Below, piece after piece: positions 3,718 to 26,559 of a DNA stretch of 64,000 nt. Position numbers and translations under genes: made by a program. Position 1 is the first letter of the stretch; each line of letters begins with the position of its first letter. The notes below the pieces were generated by a model. It worked only from the letters and a program-made list of their open reading frames with translations. It did not search any database and was not told where the DNA came from. The stretch is from a virus. Lineage: Duplodnaviria; Caudoviricetes. The stretch lies in the IMG/VR virus record IMGVR_UViG_3300047159_000056, positions 32,001-96,000 of that record; one strand, written 5' to 3'.

Positions 3718-5304
3718 ATGGAAGAGAAAATCTTAATAGAAAATTCAAAATTAGTGATTAAAAAAATTATTAGTGGACCAAATACAAGTGGTTCTACAAA
3801 TTCCCCGGATATTATTGTTAAGCTAGATCTTGACAATATACAGGATATTAGTAGACCTTGTGTTGTGGCAACTTTTAAACATGAGAAAGACGGAACAATT
3901 AGAGACATCCTAAATGCTAGTTCTAAGTTTGCAGAGATTGGAAGTACTGGTATAGAATTTCGCTGTGACTTTGTAGGAGATGAGTTTTGGGTTCTTGAAA
4001 AATCTAAGAAACTAGAAAAGAATCCTCAACAATATTCTAATCATGATATAGCCGTAATAGCAGAAATGATTAAGACACTATACAATCCAAAGAACATAAC
4101 TAAGTGTGAAACCTTAGTCAGAGCCCTTGGAATAGATGACTTAACTGATGCTTTCTATAAGACACCAATGTTCTTTATTAATAGAGCAGATAATTCTTTT
4201 GGAGAAATACTGAAGAATATCCTAGTTGATTCTATTAGTAAAGATGATAAAGAGATTAAGAGAAATAAAACCTTCTTAAATAGAGAAACCTATAGTAGAA
4301 GTAGATATTCTGTTTATCACTTAATGAAAGACATTGTAGAGGATGGCGCCAGTATTATGATTAGCAAAGATCTAACTGGTGAATATAATAAAATCAGTAA
4401 GTCAGGAACACAAGGTTGGAAATTTGCTGCTACCTGGATGAAAGTTATAAACCTCCTAGGTAACAGAGAAAGAGCCAATATGAGTTTTAAATGTTCCTAT
4501 TCTGTTACAATAAAAGTACCGGAGAATAAAAAACTTGGTGTTGCAGCAGATGAGAGAGAACTAAACACAATTATCAACCTGAATATTATAAAGGATGGAT
4601 TGGTAAATATTGATAGCATTGGAATAAAAGGATCTAAAGAATTTATACAGAAACTAAAGAGAAAACATATAGTGGAATTCAATATCTTATATGAGAATGA
4701 AGTCCTGGTTGATCTCAAGAAGCTTCCAATTATTAGTAGATCCGATATTAGAAGACCTAGTATACAATTGCTAAGCGAACTGGTAAAAAATATAGAACTG
4801 TCAAGAATAGCCGCTAAGTTTTATGAATTAACTAAGCCGGCACCTAAGAAGACGGCCAAAGAAAAATACCTGGAAAGTCTTGGTATATATGGTAGCTGGT
4901 ATTTTAAGAAACAACAACCAGCAGTTCCAGCAACATATACTTATAATGCAACAACACTATGCTCGAACAACTCCCTCAAGTCTATTTCAACTGCAGATAT
5001 CTCAAAGTATACCAAAGGAATTAGAACTGCACAAATAAAAACAATATCTAATTTCCTGGATAATCTTTGCAGAATAAATCCAGAAAGGGAATATAAACTC
5101 TGGAGTGAAAAACATGAGGACTTAGTTCAAGATTATAGGAAGTATGTATTTGAGTTGATCCTTGGAAAAAATCTGAAACTTAAAGATATTAGAAAAAATA
5201 AAAATATCAAGATAGAGGGTTTATCCACATATGTTAGAGACTATAGAATAACTAACTATGTCAAGGTAAACTGGAATATAAAGGTTAAATCAATTGAAGT
5301 TTAA
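3718..5304 (+). CDS. hypothetical phage protein (528 aa)
   Basis: Long ORF preceded by ccttaattatg promoter motif and followed by a terminator. Confidence 0.8.
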   Translation: MEEKILIENSKLVIKKIISGPNTSGSTNSPDIIVKLDLDNIQDISRPCVVATFKHEKDGTIRDILNASSKFAEIGSTGIEFRCDFVGDEFWVLEKSKKLEKNPQQYSNHDIAVIAEMIKTLYNPKNITKCETLVRALGIDDLTDAFYKTPMFFINRADNSFGEILKNILVDSISKDDKEIKRNKTFLNRETYSRSRYSVYHLMKDIVEDGASIMISKDLTGEYNKISKSGTQGWKFAATWMKVINLLGNRERANMSFKCSYSVTIKVPENKKLGVAADERELNTIINLNIIKDGLVNIDSIGIKGSKEFIQKLKRKHIVEFNILYENEVLVDLKKLPIISRSDIRRPSIQLLSELVKNIELSRIAAKFYELTKPAPKKTAKEKYLESLGIYGSWYFKKQQPAVPATYTYNATTLCSNNSLKSISTADISKYTKGIRTAQIKTISNFLDNLCRINPEREYKLWSEKHEDLVQDYRKYVFELILGKNLKLKDIRKNKNIKIEGLSTYVRDYRITNYVKVNWNIKVKSIEV

Positions 5305-5359
5305 AAATATAAATAGAAAGTAGGGAGAAAAACTCTACTTTCTTTTCCTTATTCTTGAT

Positions 5360-6259
5360 ATGAAAACATTTAAAGACGTAGAAGTTGGAGATAAAATTTA
5401 TATAGCAATAAAAGGAGTGTTTGGCAGAATTCCTAGTAGATATATAATACAGGATGATCTTATTCTTGAAACAGCAAAAGTGAAAAAAATATTAGATGAC
5501 AAAAGAACACTCATTATCGAACATGGAAAAGAACAGGTAGAAGTAGAAAACCCTATTATCTTAGGACATATTAACTTAAGAAATAGTGTACATTATGCTA
5601 TGCCTTTTGATACTATTATTGATGGCAAGCCTATTTCTTGTAATCTGGTAGCTTGTTCTTGTGCTGAATCATTTATAAAATATGTGATAAATGAAAACAT
5701 AGAATCATTAGCTTCTAGAAGTAGAGATATTATGGACTATACCTTTTCTAAATATAATCCAGTAAAAGAAAATATAGACCAGCTAATAGATACAATGCTA
5801 AAAATACCTAGTTCAAATGATAAGCTAAAAGTAGGAGATACTGTTTATGGATTTCTTACAGTAACAGTATACTCAACAAATGAACCTATACAAAGTCTAA
5901 TTGATGTTGTTCCTGTAAATCTAGAAATAATAGATATCTTGGATGAAAATGGATCAGAATATAAGTTATTGGGAAAAGATAGTAATGGTGCAACTTATGA
6001 AGGAACAGCTTGGAGACCAAATCTAAGTGTATATGGTATGTGTTCTTTTGTTGGATCTGAGCTGGAAAAATTTAATGCTATTTGTATTAATTCGGAAGGG
6101 GCAGTAAAATATCTTAGATGCCTTTTATCAACTAATATACCTGGAGCCTATCAAAGACAATTAGATAGCTTTGATTCTAGGAATGAGATAAGAAAATGCA
6201 TTGAACTAATAGATGGACTAGAAAAATTAAAGGAAAAATATGAGAAGGAAACTATTTAA
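5360..6259 (+). CDS. hypothetical protein, paralog of next gene
   Basis: FKDVEVGDKIY and LKVGDTVYG internal repeat, shared with 6240..7145. Confidence 0.8.
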   Translation: MKTFKDVEVGDKIYIAIKGVFGRIPSRYIIQDDLILETAKVKKILDDKRTLIIEHGKEQVEVENPIILGHINLRNSVHYAMPFDTIIDGKPISCNLVACSCAESFIKYVINENIESLASRSRDIMDYTFSKYNPVKENIDQLIDTMLKIPSSNDKLKVGDTVYGFLTVTVYSTNEPIQSLIDVVPVNLEIIDILDENGSEYKLLGKDSNGATYEGTAWRPNLSVYGMCSFVGSELEKFNAICINSEGAVKYLRCLLSTNIPGAYQRQLDSFDSRNEIRKCIELIDGLEKLKEKYEKETI

Positions 6260-7145
6260 GGACATTAAAGCGGGAGATACTATTTATGCCTCAATCGGTT
6301 GTAAAGAATCATCAAAGTTAGTTGCACTATATAACCTGGAAAGACTTCACTGGAAAATGACAGTTAAAGAGACATGCCCAAATAAATATAGCGACATGAA
6401 AATAAATATAGTTCTAGAATATCCTAAGGAACTAAAAAAAGAAGTTACAATTCTAGACTTATATCAGAAGGATTATACAGCAGATAGACAAGTACTAATG
6501 ACGATAAATAGTGGAAGTAACTTGGATTTTAATATTAGATTCTGCACTGATCCTCATGATTTTGCCAATGAACTATTAAAGACTGAACTAGATGAAACCT
6601 GTGAAGCCTATAAAAAATGGTTAGACGATAAACTGGGATGGCCTATACTTCAAAAATCTATAATAGACAGTTCAATAGATAAATTATTAGCTTTTCCTAG
6701 TAGTGATAAGAAATACTATGACCTAAAAGTTGGAGATACTGTTTATGGAGTTAAGAATGAAGTAATAACAGATGGACATCTTTCTTTAACTGGATATGAA
6801 GAGGTTGAGATAAAAGTAAAATTAATTACAGATAAAATCTTTGAACTAGAATATTTTGACTGTAATACTGAAAGATTAATCTCTAGTTATTTCAAAGCGG
6901 ATGATAGTAATAGATTAGAAGAAATTACAGGTCCAGAAAATACATTCCCTAAATTTTATGATATTAGAAAAGTATATATAAACCCAAAAGATATGATAGG
7001 GAATCTTTTAAAGGATATAAGAGAAGAATTTAGTAGATCATATGTAGCTACACATTTTTATGACTTACAAGAAAAACTCTTAGGATATATGAGCTTAGTT
7101 AGGAAAATAGAAAATGAGATAGATAATTATAATCAGGCAATATGA
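6240..7145 (+). CDS. hypothetical protein, paralog of previous gene
   Basis: FKDIKAGDTIY, ID.LL.FPSS.D, LKVGDTVYG. Confidence 0.8.
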   Translation: MRRKLFKDIKAGDTIYASIGCKESSKLVALYNLERLHWKMTVKETCPNKYSDMKINIVLEYPKELKKEVTILDLYQKDYTADRQVLMTINSGSNLDFNIRFCTDPHDFANELLKTELDETCEAYKKWLDDKLGWPILQKSIIDSSIDKLLAFPSSDKKYYDLKVGDTVYGVKNEVITDGHLSLTGYEEVEIKVKLITDKIFELEYFDCNTERLISSYFKADDSNRLEEITGPENTFPKFYDIRKVYINPKDMIGNLLKDIREEFSRSYVATHFYDLQEKLLGYMSLVRKIENEIDNYNQAI

Positions 7146-8114: not shown

Positions 8115-8786
8115 TTACATATCAAAAGACTGCCACTCTAATCTCTTAATAGCACGATTCATATCAGAGTTCTTTGTTCTTCCATTAAACGTAATAGAAC
8201 TACAACTCTCTGGAACCGGCATAGGATTAGATAAGCAAATATCAAGATTATTGTATACTGCATCTGGAACCATCGTAATAGATTCCCCTTCTTTGTCACC
8301 CTCTAACTTATAAACTATAAAGTGATTCAAATCTAAAAGTACATCTATATAACGACCTGGATAAAAATGATAACACTTCCATCTAAGATCATCACGAAGA
8401 TTAACTATAATAGACTTCTGAATGTTATTATCACTACCCATCTCTAAGGCAGGAAATAATTCAGGACCTCTACCATAAATAACCGGATTCTCCTTTCTCA
8501 AGAATCCCTCAAGATACACTTTACTCTTCTCTTCAATATTCTCTCTACTGTGATCAAGAATAGTAGACATAACATCTATACTTCTCATATTCTTCTCAGT
8601 AGCCGAGAAATCTGAACTCTTAGTAATCTCACTTATTTTTTCTAAAGATACTAAGGGAATACATTTTTTACTAAGACCAGGACTAGTAATCTGATATAAA
8701 TAAACAGACGTACCTAGACCTTGATTGTTAAGAAACATTGGATAATAGTTACCAAGTAAACTACACTTCATGCAATATTTTCTCAT
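8115..8786 (-). CDS. hypothetical protein
   Basis: 223-aa ORF overlapping the infA stop (ATGA coupling). Confidence 0.75.
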
Positions 8787-9070
8787 TTCTTCTTTTTGTT
8801 ATTTTTGTTATTACTATTAGATGAACTTAATACAGGTCTATTCGAAGCAGTAATCCTTTGAAAAATTCTACCCTTCGTAAGATCATAAGGACTCATCTCT
8901 ATCTTAACTCTATCTCCAGCCATAATCTTAATGTAATTCTTCCTGATCTTACCAGAAATTGTACATAAGATTAAACTGTCATTATTTACATTGTCTAAGG
9001 CTACCCTAAACATAGAATTTCCTAGCTCTTGTTTAACAGTTCCCTCAAATTGAAGACTCTCTTGTTTCAT
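8783..9070 (-). CDS. infA: translation initiation factor IF-1
   Basis: [55 protein letters not shown]. Confidence 0.95.
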
Positions 9071-13829: not shown

Positions 13830-14590
13830 TTTCGATACCTATTAAATTTCGCCTAGGCTTACCATACGTATATTTTTTCCTTCACTTCGACCACAAAGGG
13901 TCTCGTTCAGGGTATGAATTGACTATAGATATAATATATAGGAAAAATTAATTTAAACTAATTGGAAAAATAAAGGAAATAAAGAAAGAAATAAAGGAAA
14001 AATTTAAAGGAAATTATATTTTAATTAGATTTTTAATTAATAAAAAAAATACCTAAAAAGTTGATGGAGTAATAAATTACATAGAGCCATACCGAAATAT
14101 TTTGGTAGAATTAGGCTTTTTTACTCTTCATAAAGGTAGTATATATCTTAATAATAGAATATTCATGGGGGTCAAAATATATGTTCTCTTTGTACACTGA
14201 GAATAATAAACTCTTTTTCTTTTTTCAGTCTTATAACTTATTTTTCGCGCATAGGTTGTCAGTCTGTGTAATTATCTTCACTTCGACCCTTAAGGGGTCT
14301 CGTTCAGGGAAAATTGACTATAACCCTAGAATATTTAATAAACAATTCTTTTTATTATTTAGGCTAATAATATATATTTTTATATTGATATTAAAAATAA
14401 AAGATTTAGCCTAGTTTAAAAAGAAAATAACTTATTAATTAGTATAACTTTTTTAATTTATTATTATAGTATCGATTTAAAATTTTTTAATTGGATAAGT
14501 TATTGCTCTTCTTATAGTATTAAATACCTTATAAATGAACCTGTAAACCTAGGCGATGAAAATAATGTTATTAATAAATTAAATATATAA
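13830..14590. other. putative replication origin (AT-rich non-coding region with two ~47-bp structured direct repeats)
   Basis: cttcacttcgacc-n-gggtctcgttcaggg-n-aattgactata at 13880-13927 and 14276-14322; very AT-rich tracts; adjacent helicase; codon skew flips across the region. Confidence 0.55.
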
Positions 14591-14593
14591 ATT

Positions 14594-16642
14594 ATGATTA
14601 AAAAAATTATTAATGTTCCTCCCGATATTAGATATATCAGTGATTGGACAGACTTTTCTCAGAATATTGATGAAAAGGATAAAAAATGTATTATTGATAA
14701 GAAGATTCCTGGATGTGGATTTACTGAATGGGTATTAACTAATAATCAAGATGTTATCTTATGTAGTCCAAGAAGAATTCTTTTACAGAATAAAACTGAT
14801 CAACATTTGGGAGAGGTATTTCTTGTGATAAATCTATTTGAAGAAGTAGTAGATTATGGGAAAGATTTAAATAGACCAGCTAAAGGGTCTAGTAAAATTA
14901 AGGTTCCATCTGAAAATGATAATAAAAAGAAAAGTGAATATTTTAAATTATTATCTAAACAAATTTTAAATTACATAGATTTAAGACATGCTGGTGGATT
15001 TCCTGCTAAGATCTTGGTTACATATGATAGTTTTCACCTAGTTAAAGATATACTAACCTTTCAGAATTTTGAATTATTACCAAAATTTCAGGTGGTTGTT
15101 GATGAGTTCCAAAGTCTGCTAGTTGATTCTAAATTCAAAGCTACTACTGAATTAAAATTTATTAGTGATCTTCAACATATAAATAGGGTGTATTATATTA
15201 GTGCTACTCCTATGATGGAAAACTACCTAGACCAAATAGATGAATTTAAAGACCTACCTTATTATGAATTAGATTGGAATGCTCTTCAACCAGGTAGAGT
15301 TGTTAAGCCAAATCTAAAGGTAAGATATGCTAGCTCTATAATAACATCGGCTAAAAAGATAATAAGCGATTATAAAACTGGGAATTTTGAAAAAACCTAT
15401 TTATATAACGAAACTGGTAGTCCTGTTGCTATAGAAAGTAAGGAGGCTGTAATCTATGTAAACTCTGTTAATAATATTTGTAATATAATAAAAAAGTGCG
15501 AACTATTACCAGAGGAGTGTAATATTCTTTGTGCTAAGACTCCTTATAATGATAAAAAAATTTCTAATAAATTGGGAAAAGTATTTAAAATAGGAAAGGT
15601 ACCATTAAAGGGAGAGCCACATAAGATGTTTACATTTTGTACTAGAACTGTCTACTTAGGGGCCGACTTTTATAGTACAAATGCTAGAAGTTTTATCTTA
15701 AGTGATGCTAGTATAGAAACATTAGCAGTAGATATTTCTCTAGACTTACCTCAGATTCTTGGTAGGCAGAGGTTATCAGAAAATCCTTGGAAAAATTCAG
15801 CTACTTTCTATTATAAACCCTTAGCCGCTAATAAGAAAATAACTCAGGATGAATTTAATAATATAATTCAAAAAAAGTATAAAGATACCTTAAATTTAAT
15901 TTCTGGTTATGATTCTGCAAAGTCAGATGAAGTAAGATCAACCCTAATGGATAAGTACAAATTAATTATAGAAACATTTAATTACAAGGATGATTATCTA
16001 GGTTTAAAAGTATTAATTGATAAAATAACTGCTGAAAAACTTTATAGTCCTGTAGTCAATAATCTAGTTATGCTGGCTGAACAGAGAGCTTTTGATATGC
16101 AGCAGATTGATTATGCTGATAGATTTACAGTATTCAATGCTATAAATAGAAATAATATAAATACTGACGATGAAATGAAACAAATTAGTGAGTTTTTTAC
16201 AACTTATAATAGTTTGCCTAGTTTCTTTGAAAAATTAAAATTTTTATGTGAATCTAATTTATCTGGAGTAGTATTGGAACAGGTATTATTACAAATAAAA
16301 GAGCCACATTTTAAAGAATATTATGAAGTTCTTGGACCAAAAAGAATGAGAGAACTAGGATACAATATAACTTTATTTAAGAAGGAATTGAATATAGTTA
16401 CCTTTGATAAAAATAAACTCTATATAGAAATCTATCTTAATTTTAAGGTTGGAGAAAAATATACGAAACCTGAGATAAGAGAGAAATTATCTGAGATTTA
16501 TAATAAGGTAGGATATAATGCTTATCCGAAAGCAACAGACTTAGAAAATTATTTTAATATTAAAAGTATATCTATATATATTAAAGAAAATAATGATCTA
16601 AAAAAATACAATGGGTTTGAAATTTTAAGTGTAAAAAAATAA
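14594..16642 (+). CDS. SF2 (DExD-like) helicase-domain protein, putative replication initiator/origin-binding protein
   Basis: KKIPGCGFT (variant Walker A), VVVDEFQ (II), SAT (III), CTRTVYLGADF (V), QILGRQR (VI); C-terminal extension. Confidence 0.75.
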   Translation: MIKKIINVPPDIRYISDWTDFSQNIDEKDKKCIIDKKIPGCGFTEWVLTNNQDVILCSPRRILLQNKTDQHLGEVFLVINLFEEVVDYGKDLNRPAKGSSKIKVPSENDNKKKSEYFKLLSKQILNYIDLRHAGGFPAKILVTYDSFHLVKDILTFQNFELLPKFQVVVDEFQSLLVDSKFKATTELKFISDLQHINRVYYISATPMMENYLDQIDEFKDLPYYELDWNALQPGRVVKPNLKVRYASSIITSAKKIISDYKTGNFEKTYLYNETGSPVAIESKEAVIYVNSVNNICNIIKKCELLPEECNILCAKTPYNDKKISNKLGKVFKIGKVPLKGEPHKMFTFCTRTVYLGADFYSTNARSFILSDASIETLAVDISLDLPQILGRQRLSENPWKNSATFYYKPLAANKKITQDEFNNIIQKKYKDTLNLISGYDSAKSDEVRSTLMDKYKLIIETFNYKDDYLGLKVLIDKITAEKLYSPVVNNLVMLAEQRAFDMQQIDYADRFTVFNAINRNNINTDDEMKQISEFFTTYNSLPSFFEKLKFLCESNLSGVVLEQVLLQIKEPHFKEYYEVLGPKRMRELGYNITLFKKELNIVTFDKNKLYIEIYLNFKVGEKYTKPEIREKLSEIYNKVGYNAYPKATDLENYFNIKSISIYIKENNDLKKYNGFEILSVKK

Positions 16643-16680: not shown

Positions 16681-17520
16681 ATTCCTTATATATGGAAAAT
16701 TAGAAGTTCCTAAATATTATTTGTTGGTAGAGGAGAAGTCGTGAGATTAGTTCCTCTACTTTTTTAATCATCTTAAATCCTTACTAGTGGAATAGGATTT
16801 ACCATTTCAATCAATTTTAATGAGTAAATAAGGGATAGTTGTGAAACTAGTTCCCCTATTTTTTCGCCCTCTCAAAAACACCTATAATCCTTATATGTGA
16901 AATAAAGAACCATCTTTAATTTTTTGCCCGAAAGGGGCGATTATTTATATTATAGGGGATAGTTGTGAAACTAGTTCCCCTATTTTTTTTTCACCCTCTC
17001 AAAAGCACCTATAATCCTTATATGTGAGTAATATGAATATCGTATCACAATTTTATACAGAGTACAGGGGAAAGCGGATCGTGATGATTAGCTTTCCTAT
17101 TTTTTTTCAACCCTCCTAATTCCTTATAAGTGAAATTAAGAAGAGATTCAATTCATGTTTTTTAATTTGTCCCGAAAAGGGAGTTATTATTTTTTAGGGA
17201 GAACAGATCGAGATGATTAGTTCTCCTATTTTTTTTAACCTTCCTAAAACACCTTAAATCCTTATATGTGAAAGTAAAAGAGATTTCATATTGTTTGCCC
17301 ATTAACGGGTGAATTTTAATTAATAATATTAATAATCTCAGTAGGAGATAGTCGTGATGATTAGTTCTCCTATTTTTTTTTTCGTCCCCCTTAGAAATAC
17401 TTTAAATCCTTATATGTGACAGAGATGTCATTCTCCATAATAAATAACTTCCAAGAGAGGAAGTGGAAAATTAAATGTTTTTTAGGGGATAGTTGTGAAA
17501 CTAGTTCCCCTATTTTTTTT
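16681..17520 (+). ncRNA. array of 7 putative small RNA genes (promoter + variable 5' segment + conserved 3' hairpin/U-tract)
   Basis: Units begin ~16681, 16776, 16886, 17013, 17119, 17257 and 17405 with ccttAnnnnTG, contain no ORF, and end in a GG.GA..RTYG(T/A)GA(T)RAYTAG.T..CCT hairpin + T-run. Confidence 0.7.
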
Positions 17521-17563
17521 CGTCCTTAGATCCTTACTAGTGTGAGAATAAAAATAAAAGTTT

Positions 17564-17743
17564 ATGAAGAGAGTAGAAATAGTGCTTGAGTCATTTTTAG
17601 CAATTGACATAGTTTTAATAGTTCTTAGATTATTTAGTGTAATTAGTTATCCTCCAGTCTGGGTACTCCTATTACCTATCTTAGTACCACTAGTAATTAT
17701 GGGTTTAATGATGTTTTATATATTTATTAGATTAGTAAAATGA
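17564..17743 (+). CDS. small two-TM membrane protein (59 aa)
   Basis: LIVLRLFSVISYPPVWVLLLPIL, similar to 31220..31426; follows a ccttactagtg promoter. Confidence 0.65.
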   Translation: MKRVEIVLESFLAIDIVLIVLRLFSVISYPPVWVLLLPILVPLVIMGLMMFYIFIRLVK

Positions 17744-18924
17744 GTAAGGTAGAAGAATTTTTATTAGGTAAGGATAGTTTAGATTTAGCTCAGCAGAAAG
17801 AGTTAAAAGGTTTCCTGCAGAATGAGTCTAATTATCCTAGGAAATTAGTCTTAGATTTTATTATAAAGTCTGCTATGGCTAGTGTATCTGTAGTACCTGG
17901 GGAAGGTTCTAGTGAATTAATTGTCTTAGATAAGGAGATAACTGAGCTAAATGGTCTTGGTGACTTAGCTAATATGGTTATTTCTGGTTTTCCTGATAAG
18001 GTTGAACTAGATAATTTTCTTATTAAGTTTAGGAATATTACTAGTCATCTGGATAAGATTAGGAGAGGATTTAGTGGAAGGGATGCTACTAAGAGGGTTT
18101 GCACTGTTGATATTGGTGGTAAACGGATTATAACAGAGCAGGTTCTTCTTATGAATTCTAGCATGTTTGGCACTAAGAATCTTCTCTTAATTATAGATAT
18201 GCAACTAGATTTTATTAGTGGTAGTCTAGCTGTTCCTGGTGGTAGAGATGCTGAGTCTAATCTAACAAAGTGGATAGACATTAATAGGAATAGGATTGAC
18301 AGTATCTTATTATCTAGGGATGATCATTACCCTTCTCATATAGGGATGACTTGTTCTTGGTTAGGGAAAGATGGAAATATAGTAGAGCCATTTATTACAA
18401 TTAGTTCTAGTCAGGTAAAGGATGGTACTTATACACCAAGATTTATGAGTAAGGAGGGTGCTATATCTTACTTAGAGGAAATAGAGAAGAGGGGATATAC
18501 ACATACTACTTGGCCTTTACATTGCATCAGGGGATCTAGGGGTCAGCAATTTAGTGAGGACTTATTACGATCTCTTAGGTGGTGGTCAATGTCTCATAAA
18601 GGGGAGCATTACTTAATTCTTGACAAGGGAGAGAAGGATGATTCTGAGATGTACAGTATTTTCTCTTACTTAAATGGTTATGATCCTTCTTATACAAAAA
18701 ATTGTTTAGATAATATAAGTTCTGGCAATTTTGATAAGATATTTATTGCCGGCTTAGCTAAGGATTATTGTGTAGCTAATAGTGTAAAGGATCTCTTAAG
18801 TGATTCTAGATTTGACGGAAAGCTTGTATTCTTAGATTCCTGTATGGCGTCTATTAATACAGAGTCCCCTAGTCTTAGCATTTATCTTGATGCTATAAAG
18901 AATCATTCAGATCAGATGGCATAG
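17740..18924 (+). CDS. pncA: nicotinamidase (isochorismatase family) with ~140-aa N-terminal extension
   Basis: LLIIDMQLDF..GSLAVPG, D.H..H, WPLHC, KG..EMYS, AGLAKDYCV. Confidence 0.85.
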   Translation: MSKVEEFLLGKDSLDLAQQKELKGFLQNESNYPRKLVLDFIIKSAMASVSVVPGEGSSELIVLDKEITELNGLGDLANMVISGFPDKVELDNFLIKFRNITSHLDKIRRGFSGRDATKRVCTVDIGGKRIITEQVLLMNSSMFGTKNLLLIIDMQLDFISGSLAVPGGRDAESNLTKWIDINRNRIDSILLSRDDHYPSHIGMTCSWLGKDGNIVEPFITISSSQVKDGTYTPRFMSKEGAISYLEEIEKRGYTHTTWPLHCIRGSRGQQFSEDLLRSLRWWSMSHKGEHYLILDKGEKDDSEMYSIFSYLNGYDPSYTKNCLDNISSGNFDKIFIAGLAKDYCVANSVKDLLSDSRFDGKLVFLDSCMASINTESPSLSIYLDAIKNHSDQMA

Positions 18925-19225: not shown

Positions 19226-19304
19226 CCTTATATATGTTAAATATGTTAATGTTTTTTTTTGAAAACGGGAGGAGAGCAGGTCGTGAGATTAGCTCTTCTT
19301 TTTT
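19226..19304 (+). ncRNA. orphan copy of the small-RNA unit
   Basis: ccttatatatg + short AT-rich body + gagagcaggtcgtgagattagctctt hairpin and T-run; same loop motif as the array. Confidence 0.6.
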
Positions 19305-25622: not shown

Positions 25623-26559
25623 TTACAGTCTTAATAGATTTGGGAACCTAATAACTGTATATGATATTGGGGGAGAGAGTTATAAGCTAGAATTATACTC
25701 TCCCCATTTCCCCACTAAGTCATCAGATATTATACCAGTTTATGAGTCAAAGGCAGATTTCTTTGTCCCAGGTAGAATATATAGTGTTGGTCTTAGTAGA
25801 TATGAGTTTACCAAGAGAATATATATAAAAGAAAATTATAGTTCCTTAGTATTTTTAGATATAGATCAAATAGATACAGACAAAAAGATTTACCTTGGGG
25901 AAGAAGATTGTAAGAAATATGGTATACCCAGTAATGGAAAGTACTTAGTATTATCACAAAACTTAGGTTGGGTAGATTCGGGTCTTAGTTTTGATCCTAC
26001 TACAGCAAACCTAGTAGATTATCCTGGGTCTAGTAGTGAAATAAAAGAAATGACACTCTTATTACAGGGCTTTACTAGATATGAAAAGGATCCTAGTATA
26101 ATTAGAACTCCAAGTGGTTCATTAATACCACAAGAGATTTTAATGTTTACTATGTCCCTGAGTCTAGGACATTCTATTCCGAGTATCTTAGGTTATCATG
26201 GTTTTAAGAAGGAAGAAAGATTAACTTATTCTTTCTGTAATTCTGATAACGAATCTATAGTAGAACTAGGTGGAGGAATAAAGATCCTAGTTAGTTTTAA
26301 AGATAAAGAAGAACAAGGAATTTCTAGAATATCGCTGAATGGATTAACAGCTAGTGAATTATTTGAGATTACCTGGGATGATTACTTGGGAAAAGCAGAT
26401 ATAGTTCATACAATATCTAGGACAAAGCCTCTTAGAATATTAGGGGCTTTTATAAATAAAGAGGGTCGTTATTGGGTTAATCCTGAGATATCTAGAACAA
26501 TCTTAGACTCACCAAATACTCTAGAACTGTGTGATTCTACTAAGTGGGTAGGAATATGA
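25606..26559 (+). CDS. hypothetical protein
   Basis: 317-aa ORF in operon. Confidence 0.75.
   Translation: MDSSISYSLNRFGNLITVYDIGGESYKLELYSPHFPTKSSDIIPVYESKADFFVPGRIYSVGLSRYEFTKRIYIKENYSSLVFLDIDQIDTDKKIYLGEEDCKKYGIPSNGKYLVLSQNLGWVDSGLSFDPTTANLVDYPGSSSEIKEMTLLLQGFTRYEKDPSIIRTPSGSLIPQEILMFTMSLSLGHSIPSILGYHGFKKEERLTYSFCNSDNESIVELGGGIKILVSFKDKEEQGISRISLNGLTASELFEITWDDYLGKADIVHTISRTKPLRILGAFINKEGRYWVNPEISRTILDSPNTLELCDSTKWVGI

Follow-up and report, generated by a model that had tools for sequence, protein, structure and literature searches.

A tandem array of candidate antisense small-RNA genes with a common 3′ hairpin in a jumbo phage

Positions 16684-17520 of the window (the whole 64,000-nucleotide stretch of viral DNA analysed here) hold seven head-to-tail units, each consisting of a promoter, an ORF-less body and a terminator that carries a conserved hairpin motif. 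Our preferred reading, to which we assign a probability of roughly 0.55, is that these units encode early phage antisense RNAs that block the initiation of translation on host mRNAs, with a tail that binds a helper protein. Transcription, early timing, host mRNA targets, repression and the protein partner are what we infer. We class the array as a variant of trans-acting small RNAs (sRNAs), new in its common tail and varying seed; at the sequence level, each unit has the promoter and terminator of its own and the lack of an ORF that are typical of such RNAs.

Anatomy of the units and their terminal hairpin

The initial annotation had described seven consecutive ORF-less units of about 95-150 bp. 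This description holds: a promoter motif, CCTTA-nnn-RTG, starts each unit (at window 16684, 16779, 16889, 17016, 17122, 17260 and 17408), units 1-7 measure 95, 110, 127, 106, 138, 148 and 124 bp, and no ORF of at least 50 aa lies within the array. Every unit closes with a hairpin and T-run bearing the expected apex. An eighth promoter at 17532 drives the 59-aa gene that follows the array. The same promoter motif also precedes many genes of the phage (78 matches).

All seven units lie on the + strand. Unit 1 (16684-16765) has its promoter at 16684-16694, a body without CAU and a motif terminator at 16726-16765. Unit 2 (16779-16864) contains a CAU at 16803-16805, the reverse complement of which reads M-V-N-P-I, and ends in a terminator at 16827-16864. 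In unit 3 (16889-16991), a CAU at 16911-16913 (M-V-L) is followed by an internal hairpin at 16926-16938 and the terminator at 16952-16991. Unit 4 (17016-17107) has no CAU; its body may fold a 5′ hairpin with the RTG, and its terminator occupies 17068-17107. The CAU of unit 5 (17122-17236), at 17154-17156, precedes a U-run, an internal hairpin (17170-17182) and the terminator (17197-17236). Unit 6 (17260-17382) carries a CAU at 17287-17289 (M-K-S-L-L), an internal hairpin at 17297-17310 and a terminator at 17340-17382. Finally, unit 7 (17408-17520) has a possible 5′ GAGA-loop hairpin, a CAU at 17436-17438 (M-E-N-D-I) and, in its 3′ part, an internal AAGAGA-loop hairpin (17447-17464) and the terminator (17483-17520). 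The internal hairpins predicted earlier for units 3, 5, 6 and 7 are all present.

The early genes of this phage are arranged as promoter-ORF-terminator cassettes. A second motif, a 5′ leader hairpin with an AATARTG apex, lies immediately behind the promoter in many of the small early genes; 12 copies were found, and 1 in the related contig G269. Copies lie at window 10138, 10352, 10753, 12125, 13293 and 18928 (all +), at record 25543 (−), and at record 198291-199709 and 205626. Several of these hairpins pair from the RTG of the promoter motif, which points to this RTG as the probable transcription start. With such a start, the units could conceivably be leaderless mRNAs for micro-peptides that begin at this RTG. 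We regard this as highly improbable, since the RTG frames of units 1-3 end after two or three codons, since those of units 4 and 7 stay open across the terminator, and since the units have no peptide in common.

The terminal hairpin shows clear signs of conservation as a structure. Its upper 4-bp stem is 99% paired in 24 copies from three phages, with double-sided changes at three of the four pairs; in a slid control, pairing falls to 0-48%. Most copies have a GWGA or GWGAN loop, and the base behind the stem is a purine that is bulged or left unpaired. The conserved apex with a GNRA-like loop and compensating inner pairs that had been noted at the outset is therefore borne out; the ‘invariant UAG’ was an overstatement, with UAG in 24, UGG in 3 and UAA in 2 of 29 copies. 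In addition, seven units from three phages have a further hairpin in common, with covarying stems below a C-AAGMGW-G loop.

The motif is not a generic terminator of this phage. Among 96 terminator-like hairpins in the 207-kb record, it occurs in 11, of which 10 directly follow a promoter without an ORF and one is fused to an insertion sequence (IS) remnant. Terminators right behind stop codons in the record have plain A/U loops, as had been proposed for ordinary terminators, and none of them carries the motif. Scoring 106 candidates per genome in 61 bacterial genomes, the hairpin model returned three weak GUGA terminators. The tail hairpin may bind a protein, as first proposed. An exception to this distribution is the distant relative G272, where tail-like hairpins follow protein genes at 117770-117811 (+) and 115979-116019 (−), one of these genes being ClpP-like; they are possibly 3′-UTR-derived members of the family or the origin of the motif.

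Recurrence and turnover of the units in related phages

The window is part of a 207,396-bp virus record (32% GC, 56% complete). The same phage is also found on a 340-kb contig. Its clade of jumbo phages is a large one in which contigs reach about 430 kb, and wastewater metagenomes are the source of the closest relative. With a covariance model, 12 units are detected in the record, so that the seven-unit array stands as first described, but the family is not restricted to it: a solitary eighth unit without CAU lies at window 19226-19304 (+), and others at record positions 26420, 200902, 206068 and 206161. The model also detects 11 units in three clusters in the 73-kb contig G269. Six units are present in the relative L021, and single ones in G272 and G274. 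The candidate L014 is a false positive, and blastn against INPHARED gave chance-level matches only.

The array is flanked upstream by a 682-aa helicase-like gene (14594-16642, +), which is context with no demonstrated tie to the system, and downstream by an isochorismatase/nicotinamidase-like gene (17740-18924, +). In L021, where the helicase is 73% identical, the slot holds three different units, with unrelated bodies, the same tail and no ORF. This content bears on the idea that the units are emptied gene cassettes, i.e. functionless promoter-terminator shells left after the loss of ORFs, which would fit the cassette arrangement of the early genes and the two similar hairpins behind ORFs in G272. 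We judge it very unlikely: the L021 slot again holds ORF-less units, the motif is never found on the post-ORF terminators of the record phage, the units lack the AATARTG leader hairpin seen at many ORF cassettes, and the stems carry compensatory changes, including one in unit 7 of L016/L019.

Units are gained and lost individually. Unit 7 is duplicated in strain L172, unit 6 is absent from strain L173, and unit 3 is absent from strain L176. The 5′ sequences are distinct among copies, yet nearly invariant between strains. The initial proposal of an RNA family with a variable 5′ segment and a constant 3′ hairpin is consistent with the anatomy, the covariation, the recurrence in other phages and this unit-wise turnover, all of which support it as a predicted family.

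Exchange between phages is suggested by a segment of 1,329 bp (record 206069-207396 and G269 4785-6113) that is 99.7% identical, although G269 is elsewhere only about 70% alike to the record. The common segment comprises a complete unit, a second unit's tail and an AAA ATPase-like gene. The disparity points to a recent exchange and a common host for the two phages.

Mobile elements are found close to some units. At L001:11005-11107 (record about 206004-206106), an IS200/IS605-type end remnant takes the place of one unit's promoter and body; the intact version of this unit is found in G269 (L144). A complete element with TnpB, about 1.7 kb long, immediately follows a unit in L003. The region upstream of the helicase-like gene contains two similar non-coding stretches (window 13850-13940 and 14270-14330), with counterparts in L021 at 6330-6400 and 6990-7050; these may represent an origin or a structured element. 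In L021, the intact helicase-like gene is also preceded by a truncated second copy of its start, which has a promoter of its own (L021:6583-6910).

Statistical complementarity of the variable bodies to translation-start regions

We infer that the host is a Bacteroidales species, because the start regions of the phage genes are A-rich and nearly free of Shine-Dalgarno (SD) sites, and because one IS end of the record has matches in genomes of Prevotella and Bacteroidales. The leaders are rich in A; 60% of them have A at −3, and 18 of 204 genes show an SD-like word. Such a start pattern is that of Bacteroidota (PMC6847099). The TnpB element is 84-85% identical to two genomes of the Bacteroidaceae group, one of them Prevotella lacticifex; no exact copy was found. 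No spacer-like match to 20 kb of the phage was found in 391 genomes. A phage gene at window 8783-9070 (−) has 68-77% nucleotide identity to Bacteroidales genomes over about 100-160 bp; it probably corresponds to the IF-1 gene in the Pfam matches.

Many bodies contain a CAU followed by a U-rich run, and their reverse complement resembles an A-rich Bacteroidota start-codon region. This anti-start complementarity, which is absent from the initial annotation, is the best lead to function. With a threshold of 4 bits and windows that were both chosen after the pattern had been seen, a model of phage-gene starts scores 15 of 27 bodies at or above threshold, as compared to 7.6 in dinucleotide shuffles (p 0.001); a model trained on Bacteroidales loci also gives 15 of 27, against 9.5 in shuffles (p 0.009). 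For the array units on their own, the figures are 5 of 7 and 1.5 (p 0.003-0.005). Counted over all 29 units, 15 bodies look like start regions in this way, against 6-8 in shuffles. Other segments downstream of promoters reach the score in 7 of 67 cases. The signal persists under local block shuffles. Sense and reversed strand controls are not significant; for the complement-only control, the summed score is not significant and the count has a p value of 0.015 under the phage model.

In 14 of the 17 units with CAU, the first one lies 7-22 nt past the promoter motif. The presence of CAU alone is weakly enriched (p 0.01-0.1), and about 12 of 29 units, including array units 1 and 4, have none. Unless G-U pairs are admitted, unit 5 and a few others read a stop codon shortly behind the AUG. 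The unit 7 guide shows a single change (n = 1), C to U, which faces the third base of codon 2 (GAG/GAA).

This picture is somewhat complicated by the probable start of transcription at the RTG, since a CAU might then merely close a 5′ hairpin. In six or seven units, CAU or nearby bases are indeed able to pair with their own 5′ RTG. Overall, RTG pairing is at the level of shuffles (0.298 as compared to 0.293), and after removal of seven RTG-pairing units the anti-start score is still reached by 10 of 22 bodies against 4.8-5.7 (p 0.01-0.016); a 5′ hairpin was therefore rejected as a general explanation for CAU. We regard the anti-start effect as real, though of moderate size and found post hoc; about 40% of units do not show it.

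In principle, conserved hairpins on variable RNAs could also serve as decoys or sponges. The 3′ hairpin, together with the AAGMGW loop, would then titrate a nuclease or an RNA-binding protein of the host, with the 5′ parts as AU-rich filler or stabilising hairpins. What is conserved are hairpin motifs, many copies raise the dose (as would the duplicated unit 7), about 40% of units have no CAU, and target searches found none. We still think this unlikely, because the copies have distinct 5′ sequences that hardly vary between strains, because the anti-start signal is strand-specific and survives its controls, and because the 5′ parts pair with the RTG no more often than shuffled ones.

Under the antisense reading, the units would be genes for trans-acting RNAs of about 75-115 nt, whose early transcription would run from the phage's own type of promoter to the intrinsic terminator of each unit. 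As the seed, such an RNA would use its variable 5′ segment. About half of the units have a seed that contains CAU, with anti-codon letters on its 5′ side and a U-rich stretch on its 3′ side; it could pair over both the AUG and the A-rich leader, on which Bacteroidota ribosomes rely in place of a Shine-Dalgarno site. Pairing would block initiation on one or a few mRNAs. Besides its role as a terminator, the constant 3′ hairpin is the probable dock of a helper RNA-binding protein, with the C-AAGMGW-G loop hairpin of seven units as a probable second part of this dock. Units may recombine via the common promoter and terminator, so that the repertoire would be swapped as cassettes.

A wider version of this reading is possible, though rather doubtful: programmable silencing by jumbo phages, in which interchangeable guide cassettes, loaded through the hairpin onto a dedicated phage protein or a hijacked host protein, are directed to the start codons of chosen host mRNAs (e.g. 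those of defence or RNA-decay genes), and the repertoire is updated by exchange between co-infecting phages. If the antisense reading is true, one can read from the seeds which host genes the phage wants off, the hairpin is a bait for the sRNA helper of the Hfq-less Bacteroidota, and seed plus handle form a natural 80-nt scaffold for knock-down in gut Bacteroidales.

Relation to known small RNAs, and searches for targets and partners

CRISPR arrays, Racr repeat units and CreA/CreR-type RNAs combine a variable guide with a constant handle, and are gained and lost by unit. The array shares this logic, and only the logic: rather than near-identical repeats behind one leader promoter, there is a promoter and a terminator per unit, and the handles are diverged structural motifs, with repeat families 60-90% alike. 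No cas gene lies beside the array, and the best match to a CRISPR direct repeat scores 20.9 bits against a gathering score of 45. Both the exclusion of a CRISPR and the absence of a recognised ncRNA family, as first annotated, are upheld; searches of Rfam at gathering and E-value level gave no real match.

The closest comparison within Bacteroidota is to the Bacteroides sRNAs GibS, MasB, BatR and FopS, which pair near start codons (PMC11697453). FopS of Bacteroides thetaiotaomicron is a multicopy family with a single-stranded 5′ part and an intrinsic terminator; its members are scattered over the chromosome and have a conserved 5′ R1/R1′ seed in all paralogues (PMC11697453). Binding to RbpB is taken as a further mark of the family. 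One FopS-like sequence has been seen in a phage, and the FopS structure was deposited in Rfam according to the same paper (PMC11697453). The array resembles these RNAs in the proposed pairing near start codons, in copy number, and in having a 5′ part, in some bodies partly folded, ahead of a Rho-independent terminator. In FopS, however, the seed is constant, whereas here all 5′ bodies are different and the tail is constant; in addition, the units are tandem and phage-promoted. Membership of FopS was rejected, since the seed is not common and Rfam gives no match despite the reported deposition.

Phage sRNAs such as lambda PreS and VP882 VpdS alter host mRNA expression with an RNA chaperone (PMC12197685; bioRxiv 10.1101/2024.10.31.621285). 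The array units are proposed to do likewise with an RNA-binding helper. PreS and VpdS differ in being single RNAs of temperate phages and Hfq-associated, whereas the array has multiple units. The words ‘array’ and ‘Bacteroid’ do not occur in the cited phage-sRNA review. In literature of incomplete coverage, the reported phage sRNAs are single genes, with no report of a lytic phage with a dozen sRNAs as swappable common-handle cassettes, nor of such sRNAs in any Bacteroidales phage. Bacteroidota are not known to have Hfq.

Exact and near-exact seed searches in GTDB genomes, for which units 2, 3, 6 and 7 were scanned, gave chance-level matches. Two candidate targets were rejected. PNPase as a target of unit 2 rests on an 11-nt match with poor upstream pairing in one small family; 1 of 30 Bacteroidales pnp starts begins with M-V-N-P-I (duplex −19.5 kcal/mol). 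For rpsA as a target of a G269 unit, the 17-mer occurs in 0 of 151 Bacteroidaceae genomes.

The antisense RNAs might instead be aimed at phage genes, either the phage's own, as a timing control, or those of competitors. Start regions of phage and host look alike, and with the record 56% complete and a 340-kb contig in existence, about 130 kb fall outside the own-target search. Within the 207-kb record, no own start region rises above the null, and the longest own matches are 12-15 nt; there is nothing above the null in G269 or the 305-kb G272, one marginal match (15.5 against a null maximum of 15.0) in other phage loci, and no match of the unit 7 seed in viral contigs. We consider phage targets distinctly unlikely. 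For the antisense reading as such, empty target searches are weak evidence either way, because pairing in trans is usually imperfect.

As to a partner protein, no Sm, RRM, KH or Argonaute domain is present among 25 of the 35 Pfam families listed for 149 early ORFs of the 56%-complete record. The families of this early region do include ClpP, CCA-adding enzyme, TelA, a DarG-like macrodomain and IS607/TnpB. RVT_1 and bAvd are also among the Pfam matches of early ORFs; window 44450-46428 (−) probably holds the corresponding reverse transcriptase and Avd genes of a diversity-generating retroelement, at a position deduced indirectly.
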